DNA from: Candidatus Bathyarchaeota archaeon
GTDB taxonomy: Archaea; Thermoproteota; Bathyarchaeia; Bathyarchaeales; Bathycorpusculaceae
Direction of reading: 5' to 3'
Assembly: GCA_963717465.1 (NCBI GenBank)
Contig: OY970340.1
Span: 2,528,001 to 2,592,000, forward strand
Length of the DNA: 64,000 bases
Part shown: one piece after another, positions 22,202 through 53,105 of the stretch
Position numbering within the stretch: position 1 is the first letter of the stretch
Layout: every line of letters starts with the position of its first letter
Position numbers and translations under genes: made by a program
The notes under the pieces: model-generated
Databases searched by the model: none
What the model was told of the DNA's origin: nothing
What the model saw: the letters and a program-made list of their open reading frames with translations, nothing else

Positions 22202-22214
22202 TCCACCTCCTCTC

Positions 22215-30067: not shown

Positions 30068-30818
30068 TTATCCGAATTTGCCGTTAATGTAATTGTATGT
30101 TAACTCGCTTTTAGGATTATTAAAAAGAGTCTTGGTCTCATTGTACTCAACCAGTTCACCTACATACATAAAAGCTGTATAATTGGAAACACGCGCAGCT
30201 TGCTGCAAATTGTGAGTCACAATAATAACTGTGTACTTCCCTTTGAGTTCTCCAACAAGAGATTCAATACGTGATGTCGGCCGGATCCAAAGCACTACAC
30301 GGTTCATCCATCAAAATCACTTCAGGCTCAACTGCCAAGGCGCGCGCAATACAAAGTCGTTGCTGCTGTCCACCAGAAAGAGAAAACGCGCTCTCATTAA
30401 GGCGATCCTTAACTTCATCCCACAATGCGGCTCCCCGAAGGCTTTTCTCTACAGCCTCATTGAGTTTGCCTCCTTTAGCGGTATTATGGATGCGTGGACC
30501 ATAGGCGACATTGTCGAAAATGCTTTTTGGAAAGGGGTTAGGCTTCTGAAATACCATGCCAATCCTACGTCTCAAATCATAAACGTTACTGCCATCATCA
30601 TAGATGTTTTGGCCATCAAAAATTATCTCGCCTGACGTTCGGCAACCAGTGATAAGATCGTTCATTCTATTGATGGAGCGTATAAGGGTGGATTTGCCGC
30701 ATCCTGAGGGACCCATAATCGCCGTTACAGCTTTCTCTTTAACGTCAAAATCTACATCTTTCAAAACGTGATTACTCTTGAACCAAAGGTTGAATTTTTT
30801 TGTTTGAACGTTTCCCAA
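30068..30818 (-). CDS. pstB: Phosphate ABC transporter ATPase PstB, frameshifted near 30280
   Basis: [55 protein letters not shown]; continues in another frame with TSRIE...[12 protein letters not shown]...YINGKFG. Confidence 0.93.
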
Positions 30819-31033
30819 ACTTTTTCTCCCCTGCCATAAAGAGGCTCGGCCGATGTTAGGCACTCAAGGATTGCTTTCTGTGACAAAAAAAGGCTCTCTA
30901 ATGTAAATATTGGTTTCCACAATAGGCGTCATAGAATATAATTTGATATATAATCTCTTTAGACAAGGGTTTTATTACATAATTCAATAGGGCAAATATA
31001 CTTGTCTATCAAGTTTTAAGAGAAGGGCTTGGG

Positions 31034-34019: not shown

Positions 34020-34192
34020 GGCAAGCCCTCGCTTTGCTAAGCTTCTTCTCACATTCTCTCTCTTTTCATGAAAGCGGTGACTTGGGTATTTACCGCTTTC
34101 CTACTTAGTATAAGGGGAGTCTAGTATGAGATTATGAGAAAAATAGTCACCACATAGAAATATAAAAAAATAAATAGACTATATTTGCCGAT

Positions 34193-34780
34193 TTAGCTAT
34201 ATTTCGATTGGGCAAATGCGACATATGCATGTACGTATATTTGAAGGTCTGTGAAGTCGATTTTTCCGTCGTTGTTCAGGTCGCAAGCTTGGGTGGCTGG
34301 AGTGAGCGCATGTATTTGGTTGTAGTTTATGTAGGCCTTAACAAAGTAAACTGTGTCTTGGAAGTTTACATTTCCGTCATGGTTAAAGTCCAAGTTGTAT
34401 AACGTTAAGCTGATTGTAGAACTGCTGGCTCCATTGTTTGTGTCACCGTTATAGTTGGCTGTTATTGTTACGTTGCCTGTTTGGGTATCATTGTAAGTGA
34501 CAGATGATTGCCCGGCAGTTACTTGTGTTGTTGTACTGTTGAATTCGCCTGTGGTACTATTTGTCGCCCATGTTATGGTGCCAGTAGGGTTTGTTCCGGT
34601 TATGGTGGCGGTTAAGGTAATTGTCGAATTGGCGTTAAGGTATAAGGGATTGCAGTAACACGAAATTTGGGTGCTACTTGCTGCTTGTTCAGTCGCTGCG
34701 GCGAAATGGTTTAATGAAATTACAGGGATACTTAAAAAAAGAAGCAAGAATATTGCCGTTGTAATTATTTTGTTTTTCAT
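34193..34780 (-). CDS. Secreted Ig-like (Big_3-like) domain plus dockerin-like protein
   Basis: Signal peptide; TLTATI...PTGTITW...ITANYNGDTN; DFNHDGNVNFQD and DLNNDGKIDFTD. Confidence 0.8.
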   Translation of the reverse strand: MKNKIITTAIFLLLFLSIPVISLNHFAAATEQAASSTQISCYCNPLYLNANSTITLTATITGTNPTGTITWATNSTTGEFNSTTTQVTAGQSSVTYNDTQTGNVTITANYNGDTNNGASSSTISLTLYNLDFNHDGNVNFQDTVYFVKAYINYNQIHALTPATQACDLNNDGKIDFTDLQIYVHAYVAFAQSKYS

Positions 34781-34944: not shown

Positions 34945-36489
34945 TTAGGGATTGATTAGAAAATTTGCTGCTGACTCAGGCGATAATGGAGCGGAAGAGT
35001 TTGTGAGCAAACAAACATACGCCGTTGCTTCTCCTGGGAATGCCCATAACGGGATAGTGACGGCGGCATCTATAATGGTGAGGTTTCCGCCCAGTTGAGT
35101 TATCGGTATAGTTGAAGAGGCGATAGGTACACTTGCGTTGTCAAATATTGTGATACACAACCCGGTGAACGGCGCAATCATATCATCGTTGTTTATAGTA
35201 AGTTGTATGGACATTGTTTCGCCTACGTTAACACTAGTAGGGATGGTAATATTTTCGACTTCGCTAAGATAAGTAAAAGTGAAGCTTTCGGTATCGCTTA
35301 CGGGTGCTATTTGACCTAGAACTGTAGCTGATGCTGTTATGGACCAATTTCCAAACAAGTTTTCCGTTGGGTTAGGGTCAGGAAGTCTAAAGTTGGTATA
35401 TGCTATGCCTGTTCCATTTGTAACGTTGCTTACAGTAGATATAAGCGAGCCGTTCGGGCATTGTATACTAAAATCCACGAGGGCACCTGGCACGGAAACA
35501 TTCTGGTCAGTAGCCAACCCATAAATTTGAACAAGTTGCAAAGGTCCATACGTATCGGCATCAGTGAAAACTTGGAGATTGAATGATTGAACCACGTTTA
35601 TTATTGCACTCGCACTATCCGCGGTATCATTGGCGGTGATTATCAGTATTATACGAAAGGTGCCTTCAACCGAAGCGTTAAATGTTGTAATTTCGCCGGT
35701 TAAAGATGTAAATGTTGTTCCGTTGAGGTACTCGACACCCCATAAGTAGTCGGTTATGTTGAGGGTTTGATTATTTTCATATCCTGGCTGTGACGAGTTT
35801 GCATTTAATGTTACGGTTGAACCTATCAAGAAAATTGATCCGTCAGCTGGAGAGAACCTGGCTACTGGATTCTGGATTGATGAATTTTGCGAAGGAGACG
35901 ACGAAACAAAAATTGCGTTTGCGTAGGCAAATCCTGTGGATGTTCCAGTTGGATAGATATTTCCGATTGTCGGAGATACCAAATAGAACAATTGACCTGA
36001 GGGACTAATATCGAAAGTAATGTTGCTTTGACCACTGCCGATGACCTGGAAAATAATTTGCCCTAAGACCACGTCGTTATCTGGTTCAATAGTGGCAGAT
36101 GCATTAGCTGTATCCAAGATTGTTTGAGCAAAGTCATATTCTGAACTATTAACTGCAACATCAGTAGATACAAGGTGACTGCCCCAACATGAACCATCTG
36201 CAGTGGAAACAATATCAAGAACTGCAGGATTGTAAATTACGCCGTATGTTGCACCATCGATACCGCCTGAAACAAAACTCGCATTATCCAACCTCACATC
36301 AACAGTAAACTGCGAGCCAATCGCAGCCTGAGGTATATAGGATGTTACAGATGACCCAGCATCACCAGTTGGCACAATACTAAGCACAGGCGTTGTACCA
36401 CTCTCGTCAGCTTTGATTTGATAAGCAAAGAATATAGAGAAGCCTATGATCAGTAGCATGCCTAAGCAAATAACACATTTCCGTTTCAT
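34945..36489 (-). CDS. Secreted cohesin-like protein with a PKD-like domain and the shared C-terminal beta-sandwich pair
   Basis: GSQFTVDVRLDN..GATYGVIYNPAVL...VLGQIIFQVIGSGQSNITFD; NPVARF...TLNA.SS...YLW. Confidence 0.75.
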   Translation of the reverse strand: MKRKCVICLGMLLIIGFSIFFAYQIKADESGTTPVLSIVPTGDAGSSVTSYIPQAAIGSQFTVDVRLDNASFVSGGIDGATYGVIYNPAVLDIVSTADGSCWGSHLVSTDVAVNSSEYDFAQTILDTANASATIEPDNDVVLGQIIFQVIGSGQSNITFDISPSGQLFYLVSPTIGNIYPTGTSTGFAYANAIFVSSSPSQNSSIQNPVARFSPADGSIFLIGSTVTLNANSSQPGYENNQTLNITDYLWGVEYLNGTTFTSLTGEITTFNASVEGTFRIILIITANDTADSASAIINVVQSFNLQVFTDADTYGPLQLVQIYGLATDQNVSVPGALVDFSIQCPNGSLISTVSNVTNGTGIAYTNFRLPDPNPTENLFGNWSITASATVLGQIAPVSDTESFTFTYLSEVENITIPTSVNVGETMSIQLTINNDDMIAPFTGLCITIFDNASVPIASSTIPITQLGGNLTIIDAAVTIPLWAFPGEATAYVCLLTNSSAPLSPESAANFLINP

Positions 36490-36653: not shown

Positions 36654-37994
36654 TTAAGCTGTAATTTGGAAGTTTGCTGTTTGTTGTGGGCAAACAGGAA
36701 CGCCTCCAGTAAGGGGATTTTGTGTTAGGACGTTAACGTATATTGTTGCTGTTCCTGTAAAAGCCCATGTTGGAATGGATATCTGGGTTGTAAATGTATT
36801 TCCTGTTATGCAGTTGGAGTTTATCAGGACGGTGCTTATGGGGACGCTTGCATTGTCATATACGGTAATAGAGACAATCGACCAAGTTGAGTTTTCGAGG
36901 TTTGGTAGAGTTATACTGACAGACATTGTAGACCCTCTGGCAATGGTCGCTGGTAAGGTGATGCCGATTTGAGTGGTTACAACTGTATTATACGTGAAAT
37001 AGACTGTATCGCTTGCGACGACTTGAGCAACTTGCACTGAGGCAAGAACTGACCATATTCCAAAATTGTTAGTGCCGTTATCAGGTGTTCTATACGATTG
37101 ATATGCGATTCCTGATGAGTTTGTTAATGATGATGTGATGGATATAATTGTTCCATTCGGATCACAAACCGTGAATACAACCTGCTCGGGATTTGTTACG
37201 GGTTTACCGTTCTCTGTTACAAGAGCATACAATTGTATTAATTCACCTGGAACGAAGCCGGGGCTTGTCGCGTTGGGTCCTATTCCGCCTTTATTGGTAA
37301 ATACATCAATGGCGACAGATGGACTTGGCGAAGGAGACGGACTCGGAGAAGGAGAAGGGCTTGCAGATGGACTTGGCGAAGGAGACGGACTCGGAGAAGG
37401 AGAAGCGTTGTAAATTGCGTTTGCATAGATAAACCCTGAAGGTGCCCCAGTTGGATAGATGTTTCCAGTTGTCGGAGATGACAAATAGAACAATTGACCT
37501 GAGGGACTAATATCGAAAGTAATGTTGCTTTGACCACTGCCGATGACCTGGAAAATAATTTGCCCTAAGACCACGTCGTTATCTGGTTCAATAGTGGCAG
37601 ATGCATTAGCTGTATTCAGGATCGATTGAGCAAAGTCATATTCTGAACTATTAACTGCAACATCAGTAGATACAAGGTGACTGCCCCAACATGAACCGTC
37701 AGCAGTGGAAACAATATCAAGAACTGCAGGATTGTAAATTACGCCGTATGTTGCACCATCGATACCGCCTGAAACAAAACTCGCATTATCCAACCTCACA
37801 TCAACAGTAAACTGCGAGCCAATCGCAGCCTGAGGTATATAGGATGTTACAGATGACCCAGCATCACCAGTTGGCACAATACTAAGCACAGGCGTCGTGC
37901 CACTTTCGTCAGCCGCAATCAGATGAATAAAAGAGAACACAGAAAAAATTATAACTACTATTACAGCTAAAGCAAAGATGATTTTCCGTTTCAT
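36654..37994 (-). CDS. Secreted cohesin-like protein with a Pro/Ser linker and the shared C-terminal pair
   Basis: Cohesin-like module nearly identical to that of 34945; (SP)n linker. Confidence 0.75.
   Translation of the reverse strand: MKRKIIFALAVIVVIIFSVFSFIHLIAADESGTTPVLSIVPTGDAGSSVTSYIPQAAIGSQFTVDVRLDNASFVSGGIDGATYGVIYNPAVLDIVSTADGSCWGSHLVSTDVAVNSSEYDFAQSILNTANASATIEPDNDVVLGQIIFQVIGSGQSNITFDISPSGQLFYLSSPTTGNIYPTGAPSGFIYANAIYNASPSPSPSPSPSPSASPSPSPSPSPSPSPSVAIDVFTNKGGIGPNATSPGFVPGELIQLYALVTENGKPVTNPEQVVFTVCDPNGTIISITSSLTNSSGIAYQSYRTPDNGTNNFGIWSVLASVQVAQVVASDTVYFTYNTVVTTQIGITLPATIARGSTMSVSITLPNLENSTWSIVSITVYDNASVPISTVLINSNCITGNTFTTQISIPTWAFTGTATIYVNVLTQNPLTGGVPVCPQQTANFQITA
37316..37405. 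repeat. 48-bp-period tandem duplication encoding the SP linker
   Basis: 42-bp stretch at 37316-37357 repeated at 37364-37405. Confidence 0.9.
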
Positions 37995-38274: not shown

Positions 38275-38991
38275 TTATTTTCTGCGATTTTTTTTACTTT
38301 TTTTGTTTTTAGTTAATACCAGTAAGATGGCTACGGCGATAATTATTGCTGGTATGGCAAAGAGGGCTATGGATTCTAAGAGGTTTGAAGATGATGCTCC
38401 TTTGGCATAAATTGCGCCTGCAGTGATTAATCCTTGAGCTGTACCTATGTCTTGACCTGATGGAGTAGCGATATAGAGCAAGTTGTTTCCGCTAAGATCA
38501 AAGAATATGTTGCTTTGACCAGTGCCAACAACTTGGAAAGTGATCTGGCCTAAGACTACCGCGTTATATGGCTCAATAGTGGCCGAAGCATTGGTTGTAT
38601 TCACGATTATTTGGTTGAAGCTAAAGCATGAATCATTATTTTGTGGGAAGACGTCAGCGAAAATGGCGCTGTCATTGCCGCCCCAGCATGCCCCATCTGA
38701 ACTGGAGACAAATTTTAGAACTGAAGGGTTCCAGGTAACAGCGTAAGTTGCGCCGCTGACACCGCCTGAAACAAAACTCGCATTATCCAATCTAATATCA
38801 ACAGTAAACTGCGAGCCAATCGCAGCCTGAGGTATATAGGATGTTACAGATGACCCAGCATCACCAGTTGGCACAATACTAAGCACAGGCGTCGTGCCAC
38901 TTTCGTCAGCCGCAATCAGATGAATAAAAGAGAACACAGAAAAAATTATAACCACTATTACAGCTAAAGCAAAGATGCTCTTGTGTCTCAT
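38275..38991 (-). CDS. Single cohesin-like module with C-terminal TM anchor
   Basis: Signal peptide, cohesin-like module, TM followed by KNKKSKKNRRK. Confidence 0.78.
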   Translation of the reverse strand: MRHKSIFALAVIVVIIFSVFSFIHLIAADESGTTPVLSIVPTGDAGSSVTSYIPQAAIGSQFTVDIRLDNASFVSGGVSGATYAVTWNPSVLKFVSSSDGACWGGNDSAIFADVFPQNNDSCFSFNQIIVNTTNASATIEPYNAVVLGQITFQVVGTGQSNIFFDLSGNNLLYIATPSGQDIGTAQGLITAGAIYAKGASSSNLLESIALFAIPAIIIAVAILLVLTKNKKSKKNRRK

Positions 38992-39238: not shown

Positions 39239-40396
39239 TTAAAAAAAGTTAATTTTTGGGGTTTTTCTTTTTTTATTTAACATTATCGCTATGGCTATGA
39301 CAATAATTATTGCTGCTGCGATTGGCAAAATTATGAATTCTATGAGGTTTGAAGAGTTGCCTTTTGTTGTGTCGGGTGTGTCAGTTGGCGATGCTGTTGT
39401 TGTTGGTGATGGCGTTGGTGTTGGCGTAGATAGTTGATTTGTTCTGCCGACTACAAGTGAAGTCCCATTCAAGGCTGCTGCTGGAATATTTCCTGTAACT
39501 GTATCTGGCGAAGTAAACATAGTAGCGACTAATACCCAGTTGATCCCATTCCAGTACTCAATCTGGCTGAGGCTGTTGAATGCTTGGTTTGTTATGCTGA
39601 CTTTTGCGTTGACATTTGAGCTCAAGGCTCCGCTGCTGGAGGTAACAGTTACATCGTAAAAGACTGCGTCGTTAAGGGATACGGGGTTTGTACCCGATGG
39701 CTGAGTGCTTTCATAGTTGGTTGAGGTAACAGTGACTTGCGCGCCATTGGGAAGTGTAGATAAGGAACCGGTGATTGTAACGCTGACACCTGTTGTTGCC
39801 GATTCGTCTACAATTGCCGAATTATTGCTGACCGGTATTGTTTCAGTAGTGGTGGTTGCTACTGTTATGGTTGCGTTGACTGCCGTGCTTGGCATGGCTT
39901 GTGTGTCGATGGTGTTGTAAATGTTTGTTTGACCGAACGTTATTTGTGATGTTCCTATTTGGAGTACGGTGAATGTTAGTGTTAACAGAACGCCGCTGCC
40001 ACTTACGCCTGCTTCTGCGTATGTTCCGTTAGGCAGTTCGTATTGTGCATCTGCTACTTCTGAAATGTATCCTTGGTAAATAGTTTGGTAGGAGGGGACT
40101 GGAGCAGAGACGAATATAGTTTTTCCTGCTTGTTGGAGGAACGGACCTTCAGTAACACTTGTCAGGTTGAGCATTGATGGATTGAATGTTATATTTTCTA
40201 GGTCCCATGACCAAAGGTCTTGAACGTTGTTTATTGTAATGTTAGCTTGTATGCTGTTCCCTATGTTTGCGTTGATATTTTGTGTGTTGGAGTCAACTGT
40301 TATTGTGGGTGTTGTGGTTGCTTGGGTAATGTTGATTGTGTAAGCGCTTGTTAGTATGAGTACAACTAAAAACAAGGCTACTATAAATTTTTTCAT
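39239..40396 (-). CDS. Cohesin-like protein (second subtype) with an extra domain, PT linker and TM anchor
   Basis: ITINNVQDLWSW...FNPSMLNLTSVTEGPFL...GVSGSGVLLTLTFTV...GTSQITF; TM followed by KKRK. Confidence 0.8.
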   Translation of the reverse strand: MKKFIVALFLVVLILTSAYTINITQATTTPTITVDSNTQNINANIGNSIQANITINNVQDLWSWDLENITFNPSMLNLTSVTEGPFLQQAGKTIFVSAPVPSYQTIYQGYISEVADAQYELPNGTYAEAGVSGSGVLLTLTFTVLQIGTSQITFGQTNIYNTIDTQAMPSTAVNATITVATTTTETIPVSNNSAIVDESATTGVSVTITGSLSTLPNGAQVTVTSTNYESTQPSGTNPVSLNDAVFYDVTVTSSSGALSSNVNAKVSITNQAFNSLSQIEYWNGINWVLVATMFTSPDTVTGNIPAAALNGTSLVVGRTNQLSTPTPTPSPTTTASPTDTPDTTKGNSSNLIEFIILPIAAAIIIVIAIAIMLNKKRKTPKINFF

Positions 40397-40528: not shown

Positions 40529-41824
40529 TTATTTTTTTCTTAGCCAGAAAGTTGATCCGCCTACCGCTAGGATGGTAACGATTATTATTATTCCTAGGTC
40601 CAGTGGTGCCAGATCAATGTTGGATGTCGAATCTGAACTGTATCCAGTTGATGAAGAGGGAACGTAAATGTTGTAGGTTGTGGTATCTGTGAGGTTTTCA
40701 GGATCAACGACTGTTAAGGTTACGTTGTAGTGACCGCCTGTGGAGAATGTATATGTTCCGTTTATGCCGCTGAAGGACTTCTGGGCATATTCAGACCCAA
40801 GGCTATCAAGATTTGTAATAGTCCATAGGTATTGTGTTATGGTTATGTTGTTTGTTTCACTACTTTGTGAGCCGTCTAAGGTCACTGTTTGGTTTAATTG
40901 GATAGTTTCTCCCTGAGTTATTCCTGTGATGACGGCGTTGGGTGTGGAGGTGTTTTGAACTATTATAGTTATGTTAGCGGTGCTGATGCCGTTTGAATCG
41001 GTGACGGTTAATGTAACGTTGTATATGCCTATCGTGTTGAAGGTCCAGGTTACCGTTTTGTTATTGCCTATCATTGTTTGTGATGTCCCATTGTTAAATG
41101 TCCATGTGTAATTGGCGTTGGGGTCTGCTGAAAATGATTGTGTGCCGTTTAATGTGACTGGGGTTCCGGCGGTTACTGTTTGTGAGGGTCCGGCGTTTGC
41201 TGTTGGCTTTCCGCAGTTGCATGAGACTACTGCATTTGTAAAAGTAAATCCTGTTGGATTGCTGTCAGAAAGGGGGTATATGTTTGTTGGCAGATAACTG
41301 GTCGGGGATGATAAATAGAACAGGATGTTTCCGCTATTGTCGAAAGCTATGTTGCTTTGTCCACCGCCAATAACTTGGAAGGTGATTTGTCCTAAGACTA
41401 CCGCGTTGTCTGGTTCAATTGTGGCTAATGGATTGGCTGTATCCATGATTGATTGGGCGAAATCGAATTCTGAATTATTAAGTGCAACATCGGTAAATGC
41501 ACTTTTGCTCCCCCAGCATGCACCATCTGCGGTGGAAACCATTTCAAGAATTGCAGGATTCCAGGTGATTCCGTAAGTTGCGCCACTGATGCCTGCTGTG
41601 ATGCTTTGGGCATTGTCAAGTCGGATGTCTACTGTGAACTGGGAGCCAATAGTATTTTCTTGAAAGTTGTTGTTGTTTGTTGTTCCTGAAAGAACGATGC
41701 TTAATGTTGGTGTTTGCTGTGTTTGGGCTTTTGTTATATTTGTTGTAGAGATTAGAATTAAGGTTAGGGTTAAGAGTGTTAGTAGTAGGATGATTGGGGT
41801 TTCTTTCTTTTTGTTTTTTTTCAT
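40529..41824 (-). CDS. Cohesin-like module plus two PKD domains plus TM anchor
   Basis: Cohesin-like N-terminus; PTANAGP...VTLNG..S...YTWTF...G.YNVTLTVTD occurs twice; TM followed by RKK. Confidence 0.82.
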   Translation of the reverse strand: MKKNKKKETPIILLLTLLTLTLILISTTNITKAQTQQTPTLSIVLSGTTNNNNFQENTIGSQFTVDIRLDNAQSITAGISGATYGITWNPAILEMVSTADGACWGSKSAFTDVALNNSEFDFAQSIMDTANPLATIEPDNAVVLGQITFQVIGGGQSNIAFDNSGNILFYLSSPTSYLPTNIYPLSDSNPTGFTFTNAVVSCNCGKPTANAGPSQTVTAGTPVTLNGTQSFSADPNANYTWTFNNGTSQTMIGNNKTVTWTFNTIGIYNVTLTVTDSNGISTANITIIVQNTSTPNAVITGITQGETIQLNQTVTLDGSQSSETNNITITQYLWTITNLDSLGSEYAQKSFSGINGTYTFSTGGHYNVTLTVVDPENLTDTTTYNIYVPSSSTGYSSDSTSNIDLAPLDLGIIIIVTILAVGGSTFWLRKK

Positions 41825-41831
41825 TTTGTTT

Positions 41832-42911
41832 TTATGAGCTCCAATATTGTAGGTAGTATTTTACGAAGAGCTGTAGGTCTGCAAAGTTTATTTTTCCATC
41901 GTTGTTGAAATCGATTGCCGCAGTGTAGGCTCCGTTTTGGTAATAATTGATGTAATCACGCACGAAAATTTGCAGATCTGCAAAGTTTACGATTCCGTCG
42001 CCGTTGAGGTCGCCAAATTGGGCAACTTGGAAGGTTGTGGTTTGCGACCCTTGGGTTCCTACGTAGGTTCCTGATGAGTAAGCTGCATATGGATAGTTTG
42101 CTGTTGAGTAAACGGTGTAGTTTCCTAGGACGCAGTTACCTTGGTTGGGAAGTCTGAAGGTAAAGTTGTAGTAATGGTCAACTCCGTTTAGGCTGTAGGT
42201 AGTTGGGGCAGTGCCTGGGAATGGTGTGCCGCCTGTTATCGTGAATTGGAAGGTTTTTTCCATGGCCAATGGGACTCCGCCGTTGCTTGGCCAGTCTGAG
42301 TATACGTTTACGTAAGCGTATACTGTTCCGTAATGCGCCCAGGAATCGATGAGGAAGTTTGTTTGAATGAATGAGGATGAATATGCGCCTACGTTTAGTG
42401 TGGCGTAAGATAGCGCGATTGGTACCCCGTTGCTGTCGAACATGTTTACCGTTACGAGCATTGGTTGGATTGTGCCTTCGTTGTTTATTACTTGGACGTA
42501 GTATGATGGGGTTTCTTGGTTGGAAGCTGTTGGCATTGGTATGCTTGTGATTTGGTTACCTCCAGCATTGCATAAGTAGGATGCGTTTATGTCTGCTGGT
42601 ATGTTGTATGGTATGACGTTACCTGTGCTGATAGTTCTTACTACAAGGGTGTTTCCGTTAGGGTCTTGAATTTGTACTCCTGCTAAACCGTCGTTTGGAT
42701 AAAAGTTGGTGCCTGCGTTGTAGTTCATGCTTCCGATGAATGTTACGATAGAGTATCTATCGTACAGACTGCTGTCATTGTAAGCCGTTATAGTGCTTGC
42801 TGTGCTAGCCGTTAAAGTTAAAGTTAAAGTAGGGGTTTGTGCTCTTACCAACGTTACTGCCATAGGGGCTATTATTAAGCATAATAAAATGGAAATAAGT
42901 TCTTTTCTCAT
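41832..42911 (-). CDS. Secreted beta-rich protein with C-terminal dockerin-like module
   Basis: GDLNGDGIVNFADLQIFV and DFNNDGKINFADLQLFV. Confidence 0.82.
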   Translation of the reverse strand: MRKELISILLCLIIAPMAVTLVRAQTPTLTLTLTASTASTITAYNDSSLYDRYSIVTFIGSMNYNAGTNFYPNDGLAGVQIQDPNGNTLVVRTISTGNVIPYNIPADINASYLCNAGGNQITSIPMPTASNQETPSYYVQVINNEGTIQPMLVTVNMFDSNGVPIALSYATLNVGAYSSSFIQTNFLIDSWAHYGTVYAYVNVYSDWPSNGGVPLAMEKTFQFTITGGTPFPGTAPTTYSLNGVDHYYNFTFRLPNQGNCVLGNYTVYSTANYPYAAYSSGTYVGTQGSQTTTFQVAQFGDLNGDGIVNFADLQIFVRDYINYYQNGAYTAAIDFNNDGKINFADLQLFVKYYLQYWSS

Positions 42912-43305: not shown

Positions 43306-45546
43306 TTAGCTTGGTGTGTAACCGATTGTGAAGGTTCCATCGGATTCTGGGCAGTATGGTAAAGCTCCGTTAGCTGAGTTTGCTGGATTAGCGTTGAATA
43401 TGTTCACGTGAACTGTTGCAGTTCCACCGAATGCATAGATTGGGATTGGCAGAGTGATTGATCCAGAAGATACTGTGCTGCTTGCGATTCCGCTAACGCC
43501 TGCGACTGTTGAGCTTTCTTCACCTGAGTAGACTGGTACGCCGTTAGCATCTGTGACTGTGTAGGTTATGTAGTAGAGTTGGGTGCTTTGGGAGATTGTT
43601 GTGATTGGAATGCTTAAGGTTGCATGGTCTCTACCTCTGGCAACTAATGAACTAACTGATACTTGACCTAAGGTAAGAGTGTAGCCGTATTGGAAGTTGA
43701 ACGAACTGCTTACAATGACCTGAGCGACATCGACGGTTGCGGTAACTTCGTAGGTTCCGAATGACATTACTCCACTGCCGTCGTTTGGTAGACGGTATTG
43801 TACAACTGCGATACCAGAGCCATTTGTATATTCAACGAATGTAGCGATAACGTCAGTTGAATTGTAGATGGTGAATGTTACTAGTTTGTCTGTTACTTCT
43901 CCGCCGTTGAATTCAACGAATGCTGCGAGATTCATTATTTGCTGTGGTGCATAAGAATCAACTGTTGTAGTGCTGTTGAAAATTCCCTGGCCTGTTGGAG
44001 ATTTGTATGGAAACGCTGTTGTGGTTGCATTGTTAACTATGTAGAGGTTTATTTGTGCGCCGGCAGAGGTTGGTGAGATTATGCCTGGTGCGATTGTTAG
44101 TGTGGCTGTGTTGGTGTTCACGTAGCTTGAATCAGTTGTTGTTGCGGTTGAAACTGTCAAGGATACAACTATGTTTCCGTTAACCACTGAGGGTGCATTG
44201 AATGAAATGCTACTTCCTGTTCCTGTTGCGATTGTTGTTCCACCGTTTGTTACTGTCCATGAGTATCCGGTGATTGGTACAGTGGGGTTAACTGGGTTCG
44301 CTAATGGGTCATATCCTGGGACTGAGGATAGTGCATTCATCGTGAATGGTTGACCTGCTATGTATGTGGAGCTTCCTTCATTGGTGATGACTGCTGTTGG
44401 GGCTTGTGCTGCTGGTGCTGTGCTTCCGATGTACATGAAGTTGTTTAATGCATTAACGGGTTCACTAATCTCATTGTTGTTGACTAGGGTTGGGATGCCT
44501 GGTGACAGAGTGATTGCACTATTGGCGTAGTTGATTACTTCGAAGGTTAAGGTGCACATTACGCCTGCTGTGTTTGTGGCTGTTGTGTTAGAGAGGTATA
44601 TGTCGCTAATTCCTTGTTGTACTGTACCTGCAATGTTGTCAATGAAGCCGGGTACGAATAAGGTTGAGCTGCCGTTATAGAGGCCTGGTGCAGCGTTCAT
44701 GTAGGATCCTTCAGTTATGGTTTCGAGCTGAAGGACTGCTGGATTCCAGCTGACGCCGATGTTCCATGCCCAAACTGGTTCGTTTAATTCATTGTTCATG
44801 TATAAGTCAACGCTGAAAGTGTTGTTTATCGGATTTGTTCCACTTGGGAATTGGTATGATGCTTGGTTTGTTGTGCCGCCCGTGCCGCTGAGGACTGCGC
44901 TAATTGTGGTTATCTGTAGGTTGTAGATCGCGTTTGCATAGGCAAATCCTGAAGATGTCCCGGTTGGATAAAGGTTTGTGGATGTTGCTGTTGTTGTGGT
45001 TCCAGTGGTTGCCACTAAGTAGAACGGATTGTTACCGGTAGTATCGAAAGTAATGTTGCTTTGACCGCTGGCAATGACTTGGAATGTGATTTGGCCTAAG
45101 ACTACAGCGTTACCTGGTGAAATTGTGGCAGATGCATTAGATGTATTCGCGATTGTTTGAGCAAAGTCATATTCATTACTTCCAGTTGCAACGTCTGCAG
45201 ATACTAGTTTGCTAGTCCAGCATGAGCCGTCGTTACTAGACACAAATTGAAGGACTGCTGGATTGTAAATTATTCCGTATGTTGCTCCACTGATGCCGCC
45301 TGAAATATAGCTTGCATTATCGAGTCTGATGTCAACGGTAAACTGCGAGCCGATTGCTGATTGTGGTATGTACGATGTTACCGATGACCCAGCAGCGCCA
45401 GTTGGCACAATGCTGAGTACTGGTATTGTGCCGCTTTCGTTTTGAGCTTTGACTGCGGGCACAATAGCCATTAGCATTGACATGACCATAAAAAGGGCCA
45501 AGACCAAAGCTAATATGGATTTGGTTTTAAACATTTTTAGTTTCAT
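43306..45546 (-). CDS. Scaffoldin-like secreted protein with two cohesin-like modules, a PKD-like domain and the shared C-terminal pair
   Basis: First module GSQFTVDIRLDN...; second module TFSVDLYMNN...WAWNIGVSWNPAVLQLETITEG...VMCTLTFEV. Confidence 0.78.
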   Translation of the reverse strand: MKLKMFKTKSILALVLALFMVMSMLMAIVPAVKAQNESGTIPVLSIVPTGAAGSSVTSYIPQSAIGSQFTVDIRLDNASYISGGISGATYGIIYNPAVLQFVSSNDGSCWTSKLVSADVATGSNEYDFAQTIANTSNASATISPGNAVVLGQITFQVIASGQSNITFDTTGNNPFYLVATTGTTTTATSTNLYPTGTSSGFAYANAIYNLQITTISAVLSGTGGTTNQASYQFPSGTNPINNTFSVDLYMNNELNEPVWAWNIGVSWNPAVLQLETITEGSYMNAAPGLYNGSSTLFVPGFIDNIAGTVQQGISDIYLSNTTATNTAGVMCTLTFEVINYANSAITLSPGIPTLVNNNEISEPVNALNNFMYIGSTAPAAQAPTAVITNEGSSTYIAGQPFTMNALSSVPGYDPLANPVNPTVPITGYSWTVTNGGTTIATGTGSSISFNAPSVVNGNIVVSLTVSTATTTDSSYVNTNTATLTIAPGIISPTSAGAQINLYIVNNATTTAFPYKSPTGQGIFNSTTTVDSYAPQQIMNLAAFVEFNGGEVTDKLVTFTIYNSTDVIATFVEYTNGSGIAVVQYRLPNDGSGVMSFGTYEVTATVDVAQVIVSSSFNFQYGYTLTLGQVSVSSLVARGRDHATLSIPITTISQSTQLYYITYTVTDANGVPVYSGEESSTVAGVSGIASSTVSSGSITLPIPIYAFGGTATVHVNIFNANPANSANGALPYCPESDGTFTIGYTPS

Positions 45547-45589: not shown

Positions 45590-47161
45590 TTATTGTCCCA
45601 CTACCAAGGGGTTTACGTAGAGTGGGTTGTAGACTATGTAGTAATTCACGTAGGTTTTCACGAATCCTTGTAGGTCTGCAAAGTTTACTTTGCCGTCAGC
45701 GTTAAAGTCACAGTATGGGTTGTATGCTCCTTTAGTGTAGTATGCGATATAGTTGGCTACGAAGTATTGAAGGTCAGCAAAGTTCACTTTACCGTCAGGA
45801 ATAGCCTGAGTCTGAGTTGACAGAAGACCCTGAGATGGACCATAGGTGTTCAAGTTGGAGTCAATCGGTAGTTGACCTGCCATGTCACAGCGATCCAGCG
45901 GGATATAGCCTTGATCAGCAACAAAGTTGCTTGCACCTGAACCAACTGCAGTTGCCGTAGGATTTGCACCTCCAGTTGTCGTGTTATCAGCCATCATGTA
46001 AGCTATCCAAACACCGGTCACTAAGCTTTGAGGATTGCTTGTAACTGGTACATTTGGAAGGTCTTCCCATAGCCATCTCCATGCAAAGTACGGATCAGTT
46101 GCAGCGTAGCCTTTAATGCCTGAGTAAGCCCAGATAACGTTTGCTTGACTGCATACAGTGTAAGGACTCCAAACGGGTGCTACTGTCCATTGACCAACTG
46201 TGCCAGACGGCCCGTAATAGTGTATCATAGTGCTTCCAGAGCTTCCGTCGCTACCACTTCCGGTTGGCTGTTGAGTGTTGAAGGCAATGTTTGCTGGAAT
46301 AACTTGACCATAGGTTTGTAAGTAGCCTAAGGATAAGAAGCCTACAGAGCCTGAAGTAGTGTCAACTGCTTGCCATTCTTGATAGTTTGTCTGTTCATAA
46401 GTGTAAGTTGCCATGTTTTCTGAACCATCAGCAGTTCCACTTGTCTTGTGAACAAAGGTAAAGCCGTTTGGTGAGGCAAAGTATGTGTTGAAGCAGTCCA
46501 TAGTTCCACTGGTTGGGTCTCTAACTATGCGGGTGATTGGCTCAGTTAATTCAGCTGATGTCAAGCCTGCGGTTGAGATGCTTTGGTTAGTCAAGAAGTC
46601 ACCCCATGTATTGAAGTAACCTGGAGCAACGTTGCCCTGACCGCCTATGGTTGTATTACTCTGGACATTGTTTGCGAATGGTGTAGTGTCTGAGAAGAGC
46701 AAAGCAATTTGGTAAGTAGTGAAATTCGTTGGGAGCCAAGACATGTCTGGACTAAAAATCGGAACAACACTGTCAACACCGACAGCATAGATTTGCAAGT
46801 TGATCAGAGCAGAATTTTTCCACTCGGCAGAACTGCTTGCTGGAGGCTTTGACATTTCGCCAATATCTGCTGTTCCAGCGGCTAGTGCCGGCATGGCAGT
46901 TCCACTACCCTGCTGGGCTATGTTTATTGTACTAATGGCATAACCACCAGTAACAGATGAGCTCAAACTGGCCCAATAACTGCCAAAGCTGTTTGATTCT
47001 TCAACTGCAATTGGTCCAACTGTGCTTGAACCAACTATCGTCAGCGTATTTGCTTGGTATAAATTGCCACTTGTTGATGCGTTAGCCATTGCGCTTGCTA
47101 CAGAAAATGCTAAGATTGCTACCACTAATGTAGATAAAATTATTTTTTGGTTTAAATTCAA
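45590..47161 (-). CDS. pstS: Phosphate-binding protein PstS fused to a C-terminal dockerin-like module
   Basis: LTIVGSSTV, QGSG.....A.GTADIG.MS, VGVD, RDPTSGT...F, VGFLSLGY; C-terminal PDGKVNFADLQYFV and DFNADGKVNFADLQGFV; start TTG 47161 after AAAGGAG. Confidence 0.85.
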   Translation of the reverse strand: MNLNQKIILSTLVVAILAFSVASAMANASTSGNLYQANTLTIVGSSTVGPIAVEESNSFGSYWASLSSSVTGGYAISTINIAQQGSGTAMPALAAGTADIGEMSKPPASSSAEWKNSALINLQIYAVGVDSVVPIFSPDMSWLPTNFTTYQIALLFSDTTPFANNVQSNTTIGGQGNVAPGYFNTWGDFLTNQSISTAGLTSAELTEPITRIVRDPTSGTMDCFNTYFASPNGFTFVHKTSGTADGSENMATYTYEQTNYQEWQAVDTTSGSVGFLSLGYLQTYGQVIPANIAFNTQQPTGSGSDGSSGSTMIHYYGPSGTVGQWTVAPVWSPYTVCSQANVIWAYSGIKGYAATDPYFAWRWLWEDLPNVPVTSNPQSLVTGVWIAYMMADNTTTGGANPTATAVGSGASNFVADQGYIPLDRCDMAGQLPIDSNLNTYGPSQGLLSTQTQAIPDGKVNFADLQYFVANYIAYYTKGAYNPYCDFNADGKVNFADLQGFVKTYVNYYIVYNPLYVNPLVVGQ

Positions 47162-47269
47162 TTTTAAACTTCTCCTTTCTCTCTTTAAACAATTGAACGA
47201 TTGCTCGTTCAAGCATCAATTAAAGGCAAAAAGAATATCTTTCTTGCCGACGTAGTTTATATTTAACAA

Positions 47270-47287
47270 TTTAGACTATAGTCTAAA
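47270..47287. promoter_or_regulatory. 18-bp perfect palindrome TTTAGACTATAGTCTAAA between the divergent pstS and pstC genes; candidate operator
   Basis: Exact inverted repeat, with an extra half-site TTAGACTATA at 47320-47329. Confidence 0.55.
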
Positions 47288-47408
47288 AAAGTAACAACTA
47301 GAAAACAAGTAATCCCTAATTAGACTATAAATAATAAATAGATAAACAATATCTGTCCATTTTCAGTCTTTTCAACTATATGAGGAGACTAGGGAAGCAG
47401 AATTATTA

Positions 47409-48284
47409 ATGGACTATAAAAGATTAAGAGAAAATCTAATCAGACACGGCTTATTTATCTGCGCTGTTTCTTCAATCGTAATAGTGTTCACCATCGTAGC
47501 CCTCATTTTGAATTACGGATACCCAGATTTTTCCCAATGGTTTGCCACCGGGTTCTATGCGTCAAGCTGGAATTCATACATTTGGCCCTTCATATGGGGT
47601 TCATTATACGTCTCCTTAGGAGGGACAGCCTTGGGCCTTGTAATAGGTATACCTTGCGCAATTTACATGGCGGAATTTGCAAATATACGCGTAAGAAACA
47701 TTTTGAAGCCATCTTTGGAGGTTTTAAACGGCTTCCCTTCAATCATAATAGGAATCATAGGCCTTACTCTTCTAGTAGACCAACCAGAGCTACCTCACCA
47801 ACTTCAAGGTCAAGGAACCATCCTTTTCGCATGGATAATTCTGGGAATAATGGCAATACCATTAATCGCCAGCCTCGCAGAGGATGCTATAAGATCTGTT
47901 CCTTATGAACTAAAAGAAGCCTCCCTTGGATTAGGCGCCACACGCTGGCAAACAGTAACAAACGTTTTGGTGCCTGACGCAATGTCCGGCATTTTAACGG
48001 CAACTTTGTTAGCATTTGGCAGTGGAATAGGCGAAACCATTGCCGTCTATTACGTTGTCGGACAACAAACAGGTAGCGCTCCAGCCTTTCTTTTTAATCC
48101 AATAACACGAAGCAACACGCTCACCGTTTTAATGTATATGAGCAAAGGAGACCAGGGGTTAGTGCCAGGAAACCCGGGAACAAATCTAGTTTTTGCAATA
48201 GCCATTATAGTATTAATCATAACAGCCGCAATAAACATTATCATAAGAAGGTTATCTTCCCGTAATAAAAAATCAGGCGGATAA
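47409..48284 (+). CDS. pstC: Phosphate ABC transporter permease PstC
   Basis: AIYMAEFA, LKPSLEVLNGFPSIIIG, EASLGLGATRWQT, GETIAV. Confidence 0.92.
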   Translation: MDYKRLRENLIRHGLFICAVSSIVIVFTIVALILNYGYPDFSQWFATGFYASSWNSYIWPFIWGSLYVSLGGTALGLVIGIPCAIYMAEFANIRVRNILKPSLEVLNGFPSIIIGIIGLTLLVDQPELPHQLQGQGTILFAWIILGIMAIPLIASLAEDAIRSVPYELKEASLGLGATRWQTVTNVLVPDAMSGILTATLLAFGSGIGETIAVYYVVGQQTGSAPAFLFNPITRSNTLTVLMYMSKGDQGLVPGNPGTNLVFAIAIIVLIITAAINIIIRRLSSRNKKSGG

Positions 48285-48311: not shown

Positions 48312-49673
48312 TTGAAACTACAACTTAGAAAAACGATAACAAGTACAATCAAATACTTCAAAAAAAAGGAAAGAGCAAGCTTGCTATCGGGGAGCCTTCT
48401 ATTTATTTCGGGCGTTATCGCTATAGTCCCAGGAATACTCCACCTTTACAGCAATGTCCTAACTCAACCCATAAGCCTAATACAATTTGACACATCGGTT
48501 ACCGAAACAGCAATCTCATTGCTCTTAATACTTCCAAGTCTAGTTCTTTTTTGCATAGCATACATGCTTTGGGAAAATCATTCCTTAGGCTGGAAACTAT
48601 CTACAGGAACCGCTGTGCTGACTGCAGTATTAGCCTTTGCCGGGTATGTGCCTCTTGAATTTGCACTATCAATATCAGCCCTAAGTGCTATTGCAGCAAT
48701 AATTGAATTTCGAAATAAGAATAAAATGAAAGATTCACCGATTGTAATTGAAAAGTTGGCAATGTTCGGACTTAAACTTTCTGGGCTCTTCTGCATGGTT
48801 CTCTTAGTAGGGATAATTTTTTATATAGTCATCCGAGGTTCACCTGTTTTATCCGTCGAGTTCGTAACTGGCAGCAATTGGGTTTGGAGCAATGGCTTTG
48901 AATTCGTGGCAGGTACGACAAGTTTAGGAGGAGGAATAAGAGACTCTATAATTGGCACATTTCTGTTTGTTGCTGTAAGCGAAGTCATAGCTATTCCACT
49001 GGGCGTTGGAGCAGCCATTTACCTATCTGAGTACTCCAAACAAAATAGGATCGTTAATGTTATTCGTTTTTTCATTGAGATACTTGCAGGGGTGCCCTCC
49101 ATAATTATTGGATTGGTTGGGGTCGTCATCTTCGCAACGGAATTAAAATGGGCTTATACTTTGCTTGGAGGCGGAATAGCATTAGCAATGATGATTTTGC
49201 CATTTAACATTCGAGTTACGGAAGAAGCCTTGAAGTCAGTCCCGTCATCTTTCAGAGAAGCCTCTTTTGCCCTTGGAGCGACACAATGGCAAACCGTAAG
49301 AAGGGCAGTGCTTTTCGCAGCGTTACCAGGAATAATAACGGGTATTTTGCTAGGAGTAGGAGGAGTCATGGGAGAAACAATGATTTTAGTGCTTATCGGC
49401 TCTGAAACAAGTGCAAACTTCGTAGGCGCAGCAACTTCGATATCGTATTTGGCAAACATCGAAAGATTTTTCTTATCGCCATGTCCAGCCCTAACCATAT
49501 TTATAAACAACGTCTATAACGTAAGCACCAATACTCGACTTACCAACCAAACATTTCAGTTGGGGTCCTTGGCTTTTGCTGGCGCAACCGTCCTAATCGC
49601 GTTATATCTAGCCATCTGCATTATTGCAATGGTAGCAAGAAACTACTTAAACAAGAAAATAAAAGGGCAATAA
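48312..49673 (+). CDS. pstA: Phosphate ABC transporter permease PstA with an N-terminal membrane extension
   Basis: PLGVGAAIYLSEY, LAGVPSIIIGL, REASFALGATQWQT, GET; about 145 extra N-terminal residues. Confidence 0.92.
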   Translation: MKLQLRKTITSTIKYFKKKERASLLSGSLLFISGVIAIVPGILHLYSNVLTQPISLIQFDTSVTETAISLLLILPSLVLFCIAYMLWENHSLGWKLSTGTAVLTAVLAFAGYVPLEFALSISALSAIAAIIEFRNKNKMKDSPIVIEKLAMFGLKLSGLFCMVLLVGIIFYIVIRGSPVLSVEFVTGSNWVWSNGFEFVAGTTSLGGGIRDSIIGTFLFVAVSEVIAIPLGVGAAIYLSEYSKQNRIVNVIRFFIEILAGVPSIIIGLVGVVIFATELKWAYTLLGGGIALAMMILPFNIRVTEEALKSVPSSFREASFALGATQWQTVRRAVLFAALPGIITGILLGVGGVMGETMILVLIGSETSANFVGAATSISYLANIERFFLSPCPALTIFINNVYNVSTNTRLTNQTFQLGSLAFAGATVLIALYLAICIIAMVARNYLNKKIKGQ

Positions 49674-49693: not shown

Positions 49694-51070
49694 ATGAAAA
49701 AACTGTCAACAAACAAAAAAATTCTCAACATCCTATTAATTCTACTTCTCAGCCCATTCTTAACTCAAATAGTCCAAACAACTCACGCCCAAACCATAAA
49801 CCAAAACAATTGGGCAATAACTTTACAAGCCCAAAAAGCTGGACAAAACTCACCCAGCAACGTATTTGCCCCTTTTGACCAAATTCAACTGACCACAAAT
49901 GTGACATACAACAATGCCCCGCAACCAGACGTTTTAGTAACCTTCCAAGTCCAAGGTCCCTTTGGCTCGATTGATTTAATTAATATTACAAGAATCCAAA
50001 TGACAGACTCAAACGGCCAAGCAGGATTCTCATTCCGTTTACCAGACGAAAGCGAAAACCAATCCTTACTTGCAGGCACCTGGCAAGCCTCTGCTACAAT
50101 ACAAACAACCAACAATACATTGCAGCAAACCACAACGTTTACCACTCAATGGCCCATGCAAATAACATCAATGAACATTGCGACGGCACAGGGCCAAACA
50201 GTCTTTGCTCCAGGCAGTCCAGTCACAGTCCAACTGGCAATTAACAACACAGGGCAAGCCCAACCCGTAAACATAACACTCACTATGCAAGATGCAACAG
50301 GAAACATACTAGACCAAACCGAACTTCAAAATACTCAAATCGAAGACCAAACCAGTCTAACCCAAGTTCAAGGCACCATACAAATTCCAGACAACATAAC
50401 TTCAGGCGAAATAGCAGTTAACGCAGCGATATACTACGGAAACTATCAAAACACAGACATACCAATAGCTGCAAGCCAAACCGCCTACTTTGCAATCGGT
50501 GGCAGCGTAACCACACCAACTACAACTTCAACTCAAAACGCCATAAGCCTTTTCTCATGGCTTCTCATTTTCACAGGACTCGCCACATTCACGGCACTAA
50601 CACTTTTTCTTAGAAGAAAACATCTACCTAAAATAGGCGCAAAAACACCGTCTCCCATGCCGAGCTCAATCATAATAACTCCGTCAATAGGAGCAACCTT
50701 AGAGCAACCTTTGCAAACAACACCCGAAGGAGCCAAAACTAGTGAACCAGCATCGATACTAAGTCCGCTCCAGCAAGCTCTAAGATCCCAAGTACAGACT
50801 CAATTAAACCAAATCTCAGAAAGCGCAAACAGAATCCAAGCCTTGAAAGAAGAACTTGATTTAGAGAAAGAGAATTTATCCAAAGACTTGAGCCTACTCA
50901 GAAAAACAGTTGAAGAACAGCAAAAAATAGTAAAGAGCTACTTCGACGAAGTAACCTCAGAAATTGAAAAAATGGAAGACATCTTAAAAGATAAAGAAGA
51001 AAAAACAAAGAACAAAAATAAGACTAATTCAAACGGAAAAAGAAGTGAAACAAACAGCAATAATAAATGA
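49694..51070 (+). CDS. Single-pass protein: shared extracellular beta-sandwich pair, TM, cytoplasmic Pro-rich linker and coiled coil
   Basis: Signal peptide; FAPFDQIQL...VTF.V..P...TDSNG.A.F.FRLP; TM followed by RRK; heptad-rich E/K tail. Confidence 0.75.
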   Translation: MKKLSTNKKILNILLILLLSPFLTQIVQTTHAQTINQNNWAITLQAQKAGQNSPSNVFAPFDQIQLTTNVTYNNAPQPDVLVTFQVQGPFGSIDLINITRIQMTDSNGQAGFSFRLPDESENQSLLAGTWQASATIQTTNNTLQQTTTFTTQWPMQITSMNIATAQGQTVFAPGSPVTVQLAINNTGQAQPVNITLTMQDATGNILDQTELQNTQIEDQTSLTQVQGTIQIPDNITSGEIAVNAAIYYGNYQNTDIPIAASQTAYFAIGGSVTTPTTTSTQNAISLFSWLLIFTGLATFTALTLFLRRKHLPKIGAKTPSPMPSSIIITPSIGATLEQPLQTTPEGAKTSEPASILSPLQQALRSQVQTQLNQISESANRIQALKEELDLEKENLSKDLSLLRKTVEEQQKIVKSYFDEVTSEIEKMEDILKDKEEKTKNKNKTNSNGKRSETNSNNK

Positions 51071-52049: not shown

Positions 52050-53105
52050 ATGGTATTTATATTGCAGCCCTCAAAAGTAAGCGAAGAATTAAGGAAGATT
52101 CAATTCACCGGCGGGTCAACATACATCATTTCATTACCAAAAAGATGGATAGAACAGAATCAACTGCAGCGAGGAAGCATGATCCGCCTAAGAGAAGAAG
52201 ACGGCGGCACCTTATCAATCGAACCTAACAGTGCAAGAATTCAAGATGAACAAAATGAAGCTTTTATCAAAATATCAGCTAAAGATTCCTCAGATCTAAT
52301 CATTCGAAAAATAATTTCCGCCTATCTAGTGGGCTTTAGCATAATTCATTTAAAAGCTGAAAGTCAAAAGCAAATTTCGTCAAAACAAAGATATGAAATT
52401 AAGAATTTTTCAAGACGCATGCTAGTTGGAACAGAAATTGTAACTGATACAGCTCAAGAGCTTACTATGCAAGTGCTCCTAAGTTATCCAGAACTCTCCG
52501 TTCAAAGCGCCTTGAATCGAATGAGTATAATAACAGCATCCATGCACAGAGATGCCATGACTGCGCTTAAATGTCTTGATTATCAGCAAGCCAAAGAAGT
52601 AATAATAACCGATAATGAAGTTGACCGATTCAGTCTCTACGTTGTAAGACAGCTTAAGACCGCAATTCAAAACCCAAGAATCATAAAAGAAATAGGTTTA
52701 CAAAACGCAAGAGACTGCTTAGGATACCGTTTAGTAGTTAAATCAGTTGAAAGAGCAGCAGACCACGCATCAAACATTGCAGAAAACATTCTAGCTTTGC
52801 AAAAGCCTCCAGAAAAAGACCTAGCTGAAAAACTTGAAAAAATGAGTACCATTGCAATTTCAATGTTTGAAACGGCCATAGAAGCACTATTCAGACAGGA
52901 TTACAACCTCGCAGAAAGCATCATTGAAAAAATCAAAGACGTTGAAAACATAGAACGTGACGCAGTTATTTTATCACATAAAATAGAAAGTGAACAATTA
53001 GTCTATCTTAGGCTGGCAATCGAAAGCATCCGCAGAACAGCCGAATATGCAAGCGACATCGCCGAATTTGTCCTAAACCTAACAATTAAATCAATTCTAA
53101 ATTAA
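52050..53105 (+). CDS. phoU: Archaeal phosphate uptake regulator (AbrB/SpoVT N-terminal domain plus PhoU repeats)
   Basis: RKIQFTGGSTYIISLPKRW; DNEVDRF; VERAADHASNIA; IRRTAEYASDIAE. Confidence 0.92.
   Translation: MVFILQPSKVSEELRKIQFTGGSTYIISLPKRWIEQNQLQRGSMIRLREEDGGTLSIEPNSARIQDEQNEAFIKISAKDSSDLIIRKIISAYLVGFSIIHLKAESQKQISSKQRYEIKNFSRRMLVGTEIVTDTAQELTMQVLLSYPELSVQSALNRMSIITASMHRDAMTALKCLDYQQAKEVIITDNEVDRFSLYVVRQLKTAIQNPRIIKEIGLQNARDCLGYRLVVKSVERAADHASNIAENILALQKPPEKDLAEKLEKMSTIAISMFETAIEALFRQDYNLAESIIEKIKDVENIERDAVILSHKIESEQLVYLRLAIESIRRTAEYASDIAEFVLNLTIKSILN

Follow-up and report, generated by a model that had tools for sequence, protein, structure and literature searches.

A PstS-dockerin protein of the Bathyarchaeia in a conserved pst-cohesin locus and its probable docking on membrane-anchored cohesins

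Fusions of substrate-binding proteins (SBPs) of ATP-binding cassette (ABC) transporters to dockerins have been described in anaerobic methanotrophic (ANME) archaea, with NikA/OppA and TroA types named in the available passages (Chadwick et al. 2022, PMC9012536), and S4 Data of that paper lists HOHHFJHI_01811, in which PstS (TIGR02136, 252.9 bits, residues 2-279) is followed by a type I dockerin (cd14256, residues 284-339). The same passages report that archaeal cohesin-dockerin pairs bind, state that the implications of archaeal cohesins and dockerins are not clear from presence alone, and ask for pairing experiments. Here we describe a gene with the same order of domains, pstS-dockerin, together with the pst and cohesin genes around it, in 64,000 nucleotides of a Candidatus Bathyarchaeota archaeon (GenBank assembly GCA_963717465.1, contig OY970340.1, positions 2,528,001 to 2,592,000; the whole stretch is called the window below). 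The novelty implied by an earlier note on this DNA was overstated, as the architecture is already on record in the ANME fusions and in the supplementary table entry; the value of the present locus is its complete, conserved and testable context. The ANME protein, as entered in S4 Data, is likewise an archaeal SBP followed by a dockerin, but its PstS is typical, whereas the PstS described here is divergent, is joined to the dockerin without a linker, has a 26-residue insertion in the dockerin and is encoded among candidate partners. The ANME dockerin match spans 56 residues and therefore leaves no room for a long insertion. PstS, anchoring by docking instead of by a lipid or a transmembrane (TM) segment, and a cohesin cluster in a pst locus are all undiscussed in the available passages of Chadwick et al. 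(2022). No description of a Bathyarchaeia pst-cohesin cluster was found in the literature, in a search that did not cover most subscription journals and bioRxiv supplements.

The PstS family, represented by the proteins of P. aeruginosa (4omb), Planctomyces (4jwo) and C. perfringens (4gd5), resembles the binding domain in fold (Z 22.6-23.8), in the GSST, GSG and R..SGT motifs and in its pstC, pstA, pstB and phoU neighbours, while the protein described here stands apart by its 18%-22% identity, several insertions, a score below the TIGR02136 cut-off, the dockerin and the lack of a lipobox. The type I pairs of clostridial cellulosomes (2vn5) and the pair of Archaeoglobus fulgidus share with the present system the duplicated loop-helix, its internal symmetry, and TM-anchored and multi-cohesin partners; type I dockerins also vary, as here, at positions 10/11 and 17/18, which we take to be recognition positions. 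Unlike in those pairs, the cargo is a transporter binding protein instead of an enzyme, an insertion interrupts loop 1, the helices are long and rich in Tyr, and proteins in the window carry at most two cohesins. X-module-dockerin (XDoc) dyads are known from C. thermocellum CipA and from R. flavefaciens CttA, the latter with insertions, and by analogy the dockerin here would also be rigidly supported by the preceding domain, although the supporting domain would be lobe I of PstS and not an Ig-like X module. ABC binding proteins are carried on a shared surface structure, not each anchored alone, in the bindosome of Saccharolobus solfataricus, which according to the available passages relies on a type IV filament machine and on class III signal peptides (PMC13705601), in contrast to the cohesin-dockerin modules found here; we saw no filament machine of this kind in the window. 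PMC12484212 deals with dual binding in dockerins.

We propose, with a probability of about 0.7, that PstS-dockerin is secreted and held by its dockerin on the TM-anchored cohesins of the same gene block. The protein would be exported by Sec, probably released by signal peptidase I, and would serve an accessory Pst phosphate ABC importer of a Bathyarchaeia lineage as its binding protein. Its C-terminal dockerin would bind cohesins encoded in the block, and because three of these carry a C-terminal TM helix it could stay at the surface without an anchor of its own and pass phosphate to the divergently encoded PstC/PstA permease. As the dockerins of the locus share one recognition code, the seven cohesin domains are probably contested by PstS and the other three dockerin proteins, and several copies of PstS may be displayed at once. 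If this is correct, non-covalent docking would be an added way of holding an archaeal ABC binding protein, beside lipid anchors, TM anchors and the bindosome, and the family would supply new orthogonal cohesin-dockerin pairs for protein scaffolding. The pairing is directly testable with small recombinant domains, because cargo, transporter, regulator, candidate partners and natural variants of the code lie in one conserved block.

Binding domain, dockerin and termini of the protein

The identity of the binding domain as PstS is well supported. An AlphaFold2 model of the full protein of 523 residues (predicted local distance difference test, pLDDT, 87.8; predicted template modelling score, pTM, 0.87) was ranked against 48,161 chains, and PstS chains took ranks 1-13 (Z 15.9-23.8), with 4omb as the best match (Z 23.8, root mean square deviation (rmsd) 3.5, 276 residues aligned, the best-matching structures being 18%-22% identical in sequence). 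Foldseek matched the model to 4jwo at E 7e-13. A phmmer search of the PDB with the single protein returned two dockerin chains at E 1.1 and nothing else, so that a profile was needed; with one built from 74 family members all seven matches were phosphate binders or V. cholerae PstS. The protein scored above the cut-off of Pfam PBP_like_2 (E 2.8e-7, 31 bits, cut-off 27) and below the curated cut-off of TIGR02136 (E 3.5e-12, 46.1 bits, cut-off 206.6), and we therefore regard it as a divergent PstS-like subfamily rather than a formal member of TIGR02136.

PstS motifs were located at residues 44-47 (GSST), 85-87 (GSG), D99, S104, R214 and 218-220 (SGT), and these positions are presumably phosphate ligands, as in E. 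coli PstS. Conservation across 78 homologs was high, at 70-78 for each motif (S45 in 73, T47 in 70, S86 in 73, D99 in 74, R214 in 74, S218 in 78, G219 in 78 and T220 in 76). Fold and motifs together suggest that phosphate is bound between the two PstS lobes. A tungstate/molybdate or sulfate binder was rejected on the fold ranks (Z 11.2-12.6 for tungstate/molybdate binders, 13.4 for a sulfate binder), the motifs and the pstC/pstA context.

That the C-terminal module is a dockerin, and probably a functional one, is also well supported. Folded alone (pLDDT 87.1), it had dockerins as its top nine matches among the 48,161 chains, the best being 2vn5_B (rmsd 2.3 over 56 of 56 residues, at a Z of 6.1 that is middling for so small a domain), and the XDoc 5g5d was among the weak matches (Z 3.3). 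Foldseek with the lone dockerin gave no match at E ≤ 0.001, its two best rows being dockerin complexes. Against Pfam Dockerin_1 (PF00404, cut-off 22.9) the module scored 18.9 bits in one search and 23.2 bits in a genome-level search, and against NF041540 (GC-type dockerin) 22.9 bits, below the curated cut-off of 29. The PstS fold ends near residue 423, three residues ahead of the first Asp of the dockerin, and hence there is no linker. The first Ca loop consists of D426-M-A-G429, 26 inserted residues (Q430-P455) and then D456-G-K-V-N-F-A-D463; loop 2 is canonical, whereas loop 1 keeps D1, D5, N9 and D12 and has Ala at position 3. Loop-1 D1 was retained in 71 and D12 in 77 of the 78 homologs. 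Q430-P455 aligns to a pure gap in the dockerin of the neighbouring gene, and within the family the region is conserved (G429 in 77, L437 in 76, Q450 in 76, T451 in 75 and P455 in 77 of 78). Its length varies between loci, and in one of them (L081) loop 2 also contains a short insertion, at the equivalent point.

The pTM of 0.87 over all 523 residues suggests that the model sets the dockerin firmly against the binding domain, and the insertion itself was modelled with a pLDDT of about 90. Lobe I and dockerin without lobe II were found in 10 of the 143 proteins of a wide search, followed in six of the ten by cohesins, so that the pair appears to travel as one module. From the model and this reuse, dockerin, insertion and lobe I would form a rigid unit that leaves lobe II free to close, with the insertion as a putative clamp between dockerin and lobe I. 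The lobe-I-only proteins (P0120, P0127, P0136, P0143, P0148, P0149, P0081, P0134, P0135 and P0179) look secreted and mostly continue into one to three cohesins, and the GSG motif was eroded in the seven whose sequences were inspected.

Translation is placed at the TTG of position 47161, and a longer start given by the open reading frame (ORF) finder at 47212 is unlikely because the AGGAGA..TTG/ATG arrangement is found in most of 41 homologous upstream regions. The N-terminus has an n-region, a hydrophobic stretch (19-residue Kyte-Doolittle hydropathy 2.44) and then A26-N27-A28, and A28 is Ala in 55 of the 78 homologs, after a polar c-region. There is no Cys in the first 45 residues and thus no lipobox. 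No C-terminal TM helix was found, the best 19-residue hydropathy over the last 60 residues being 0.66. The PstS-type domain, the terminal dockerin-like module, the signal peptide without a lipobox Cys and the absence of a C-terminal TM helix had all been read from the letters alone in the earlier note and were upheld here, and the insertion of about 25 residues that it placed in the first Ca loop is a conserved one of exactly 26.

Proposed docking on the cohesins of the block and alternative readings

We found 81 proteins of the PstS-dockerin family, and the named relatives are Candidatus Bathyarchaeota. The dockerin is terminal in 78 of the 80 non-self matches, stands before two cohesins in one, and is replaced by an unrelated C-terminal sequence in one. 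The family is patchily spread, occurring in 18 of 401 genomes of the order and 14 of 88 of the genus, with a full-length match in 3 of 301 genomes of the class; some genomes (L074) have a second copy. Synteny was counted in related loci with enough flanking sequence, after 6 duplicates and 22 dockerin-less loci had been dropped. Divergent pstC/pstA genes lie beside pstS-dockerin in 48 of 48 loci, a cohesin gene is next to it in 45 of 46, and a TM-bearing cohesin follows downstream in 31 of 32. In most cases the next gene downstream encodes a cohesin protein that lacks a TM helix. In three compact loci (L029, L044 and L087) PstS-dockerin is accompanied by no more than two or three cohesin genes and pstCA/B, and MG2-Ig proteins are missing.

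PstS-dockerin is part of an accessory Pst system. Two further PstS with N-terminal anchor-like helices are encoded in this genome, one of them within a complete pstSCAB-phoU operon whose pstB is intact, and the other weak binding-protein match of the genome belongs to a different ABC operon. Of the 17 other carrier genomes found, 10 were checked, and each of these had at least one stronger PBP_like_2 match elsewhere. The dockerin would therefore replace the anchor of this protein and not, as the earlier note could be taken to say, the ordinary anchored PstS of the cell.

Dockerin-bearing and dockerin-less PstS differ at the N-terminus. Judged by an ad hoc rule written after the sequences had been seen, 43 of the 45 dockerin-bearing PstS whose N-termini are complete have an AxA-type site behind the hydrophobic core, against 4 of the 24 without a dockerin (22 from a search of the class and 2 from this genome). 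The dockerin of PstS was also compared with that of the paralogous MG-dockerin protein at positions 10, 11, 13 and 14, where matching was 0.65 within loci and 0.28 when shuffled (p 0.0003, 23 loci). Within-locus matching was likewise present at positions 17, 18 and 20 and absent at 15, 19 and 21. Gene conversion was ruled out as the source of the matching, as identical residues were encoded by identical codons at a rate of 0.47 within loci and 0.49 between them; a partner common to both would be expected to bring about such parallel change in two paralogous dockerins without homogenisation of the DNA. Among the 18 loci in which every gene is present, dockerin-code distance best tracked the anchored cohesin (r 0.48, partial 0.45) and weakly followed pstC (0.07), pstA (0.19) and the PstS body (0.24), a result that we regard as no more than suggestive. 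The proposal of the earlier note that PstS is retained on neighbouring membrane-anchored cohesins has thus gained comparative support from synteny, the signal-peptide contrast and the co-varying recognition residues, while the docking itself is what we infer from them. Prediction of a complex between the dockerin (residues 421-514) and the cohesin of 39239-40396 scored 0.04 against a mark of 0.32, in a run in which the controls did not fold, and so speaks neither for nor against docking.

Several observations weigh against the proposal of a phosphate-binding PstS docked on anchored cohesins. The binding domain is very divergent, both in its TIGR02136 score (46 bits vs 206.6) and in its identity to the best structures. 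The Ca ligands are partly eroded, with Ala or Thr at position 3 of loop 1, Asp at position 5 in 41 of the 78 homologs, and Ser at position 12 of loop 2 in 21 of 78. The pstB of the locus is frame-broken in this genome, and the system may lean on another pstB or be decaying here. The dockerin-bearing set of the AxA comparison is one clade, the rule is post hoc, and hydrophobicity alone fails to separate the groups. A PKD domain of the block also tracked the dockerin code (partial 0.34), to the same degree as the cohesin encoded with it in one gene (0.33), and linkage therefore contributes to the cohesin-code correlation; the last cohesin of the next gene gave no code signal (partial 0.03). Finally, the loci are kin, so that all p-values overstate.

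Three other readings were considered. The cleaved PstS might dock for the most part on those multi-cohesin MG2-Ig proteins that have no anchor, within a matrix or outer layer whose distance from the membrane would keep it from reaching PstC/PstA. It would then work as a mineral adhesin or a sponge for phosphate, which it would hand on to the ordinary anchored PstS. The TM-less cohesin protein that usually follows downstream agrees with this, as do the four of seven cohesin domains of the locus on proteins without a TM helix, the further PstS-type gene in this genome and in the ten other carriers, and the lobe-I-only derivatives, from which it is evident that a structural role is open to the module. 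We nevertheless consider it unlikely, given a dedicated pstC/pstA pair adjacent in every locus counted and compact loci that keep short TM cohesins while having no MG2-Ig proteins.

A still smaller chance is given to an N-terminal helix that stays uncleaved as an anchor, as it appears to do in other PstS of the class, with the dockerin pointing outward to recruit cohesin-bearing scaffold proteins. In hydrophobicity the helix is close to the anchors of PstS that lack a dockerin, and some members of the family are PstS-dockerin-cohesin-cohesin fusions (L001:9968-12481, P0064 and P0083); on the other side stand the conserved A28 after its polar c-region, the AxA contrast, and the TM-anchored cohesins kept in nearly all loci, which an already anchored dockerin would not need. 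The least probable reading is that of a degenerate dockerin which has lost cohesin binding and is left with stabilising lobe I or driving self-association, the linkage of the cohesin genes being historical. Eroded Ca ligands, the long loop-1 insertion, the weak Pfam score and the linkage effects in the PKD control would fit it, but a shared partner is indicated by the parallel, position-specific change of two paralogous dockerins, which affects both repeats and is not matched by codon identity, loop-1 D1 and D12 are kept, and the fold matches dockerins over the whole length.

Gene block and promoter region

The features of the locus are listed in Table 1. Downstream of pstS-dockerin lie six cohesin genes, three of them with a C-terminal TM helix, three further dockerin genes and the frame-broken pstB, while on the other side pstS-dockerin faces pstC/pstA across a divergent promoter, with phoU beyond. 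Three DNA sequencing runs in which this DNA has small shares were listed, and no RNA run; over the frame breaks of pstB and of the Ig-repeat-dockerin gene their reads gave scattered short pieces only, so that both breaks may be either real or assembly errors.

Table 1. Features of the pst-cohesin locus, with positions in the window
Feature	Position	Strand	Remarks
Ig-repeat + dockerin gene	31840..34052	-	two ORFs here, one ORF in locus L002; break near 32325
pstB	30068..30863	-	reading frame interrupted near 30280 (true break or assembly error)
Small secreted Ig-like + dockerin protein	34193..34780	-	
Cohesin-PKD-like-MG2-like/Ig	34945..36489	-	
Cohesin-(SP)n linker-MG2-like/Ig	36654..37994	-	
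Short cohesin	38275..38991	-	C-terminal TM
Cohesin	39239..40396	-	above Pfam cut-off; C-terminal TM; orthologous to the most constant of the anchored cohesins
Cohesin-PKD-PKD	40529..41824	-	C-terminal TM
Secreted MG2-like/Ig protein with canonical dockerin	41832..42911	-	Pfam E 1.2e-8
Secreted two-cohesin protein	43306..45546	-	C-terminal MG2-like/Ig module, without TM
pstS-dockerin gene	45590..47161	-	523 aa, TTG start
Dockerin, aa 426-511	45629..45886	-	two symmetric loop-helix repeats
Insertion of 26 aa in Ca loop 1, aa 430-455	45797..45874	-	conserved, modelled as ordered
PstS-type binding domain, aa 36-423	45893..47056	-	lobe I ~36-128 + 357-423, lobe II between
Signal peptide, aa 1-28	47078..47161	-	Cys-free, A-N-A end; cleavage predicted from the pattern
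Shine-Dalgarno-like AGGAGA before TTG	47171..47176	-	
Inverted repeat TGAACGA-N4-TCGTTCA	47194..47211	-	conserved, in probable leader, shortly before the Shine-Dalgarno
Perfect 18-bp palindrome	47270..47287	.	upstream of TATA-like box, divergent promoter region
pstC	47409..48284	+	TIGR02138 193.9 bits vs cut-off 196.45
pstA with N-terminal membrane extension	48312..49673	+	TIGR00974 213.8 bits, above cut-off
MG2-like/Ig module + TM + C-terminal tail	49694..51070	+	candidate membrane anchor of MG2-Ig proteins
AbrB/MazE-PhoU regulator	52050..53105	+	

The four dockerins found in the genome all map to this locus, as do six of its seven Pfam cohesin matches, and a lone cohesin-TM gene lies outside (G000:C1:1183394-1184119). 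The four dockerin proteins carry PstS or Ig-like modules, and dockerin-bearing glycoside hydrolases, the mark of a cellulosome, are not among them. Five genes of the block (41832-42911, 43306-45546, 36654-37994, 34945-36489 and 49694-51070) contain an MG2-like + Ig module, once TM-anchored, once with a dockerin and three times with cohesins. Elsewhere in the genome this module gave a single weak partial match, and atlas searches with it led only to clusters without a name or to minority-family leads (0.82 and 0.91).

It is possible, though doubtful, that the 23-kb block, flanked by pstB at one end and by pstCA-phoU at the other, encodes a multi-tier scaffold induced by phosphate starvation, a 'cellulosome for phosphate'. 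The TM cohesins and the MG2-Ig-TM protein would anchor such a scaffold, the cohesin-MG2-Ig and MG2-Ig-dockerin proteins would extend it (cohesin-dockerin adaptors in the compact loci), and many rigid PstS-dockerin units would decorate it and funnel phosphate to the dedicated PstCA. This would be a cohesin-dockerin machine devoted to the capture of an inorganic nutrient, with a locus-specific recognition code.

The promoter region contains two conserved elements. The inverted repeat of 47194-47211 scored at least 16 bits in 37 of 41 upstream regions, with a motif information content of 21 against about 9.8 when shuffled, and its loops are frequently GNRA-like; it is a candidate operator or leader RNA hairpin. 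Rfam gave no matches over 47000-47500. A promoter-like block, CTATAGnCTAAA..TAAACTAC.TCG..AGATAT (47235-47290), is conserved in most related loci and here forms the perfect palindrome of 47270-47287, and we regard it as a candidate site for the AbrB-PhoU regulator. As no second good copy of the palindrome or of the inverted repeat was found in the genome, a Pho-box regulon could not be shown.

Among minor observations, the five CohA-type cohesins of this genome (34945-45546) form their own clade with a support of 99, and two of them are nearly identical, which suggests duplication or homogenisation within the genome. A PEF-like motif was found in 26 of 66 TM-bearing cohesin anchors of related loci, and the present genome has an exosortase/archaeosortase-family match at C1:1909632-1910448. 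The extra N-terminal membrane region of PstA is about 140 residues long and is likewise present in L001 and L002. A 68-residue remnant resembling the C-terminus of PhoU adjoins pstB (31034-31240, + strand), and a molybdopterin oxidoreductase-like gene and an Fe-S subunit gene were recognised, by sequence reading only, at 21419-24749.

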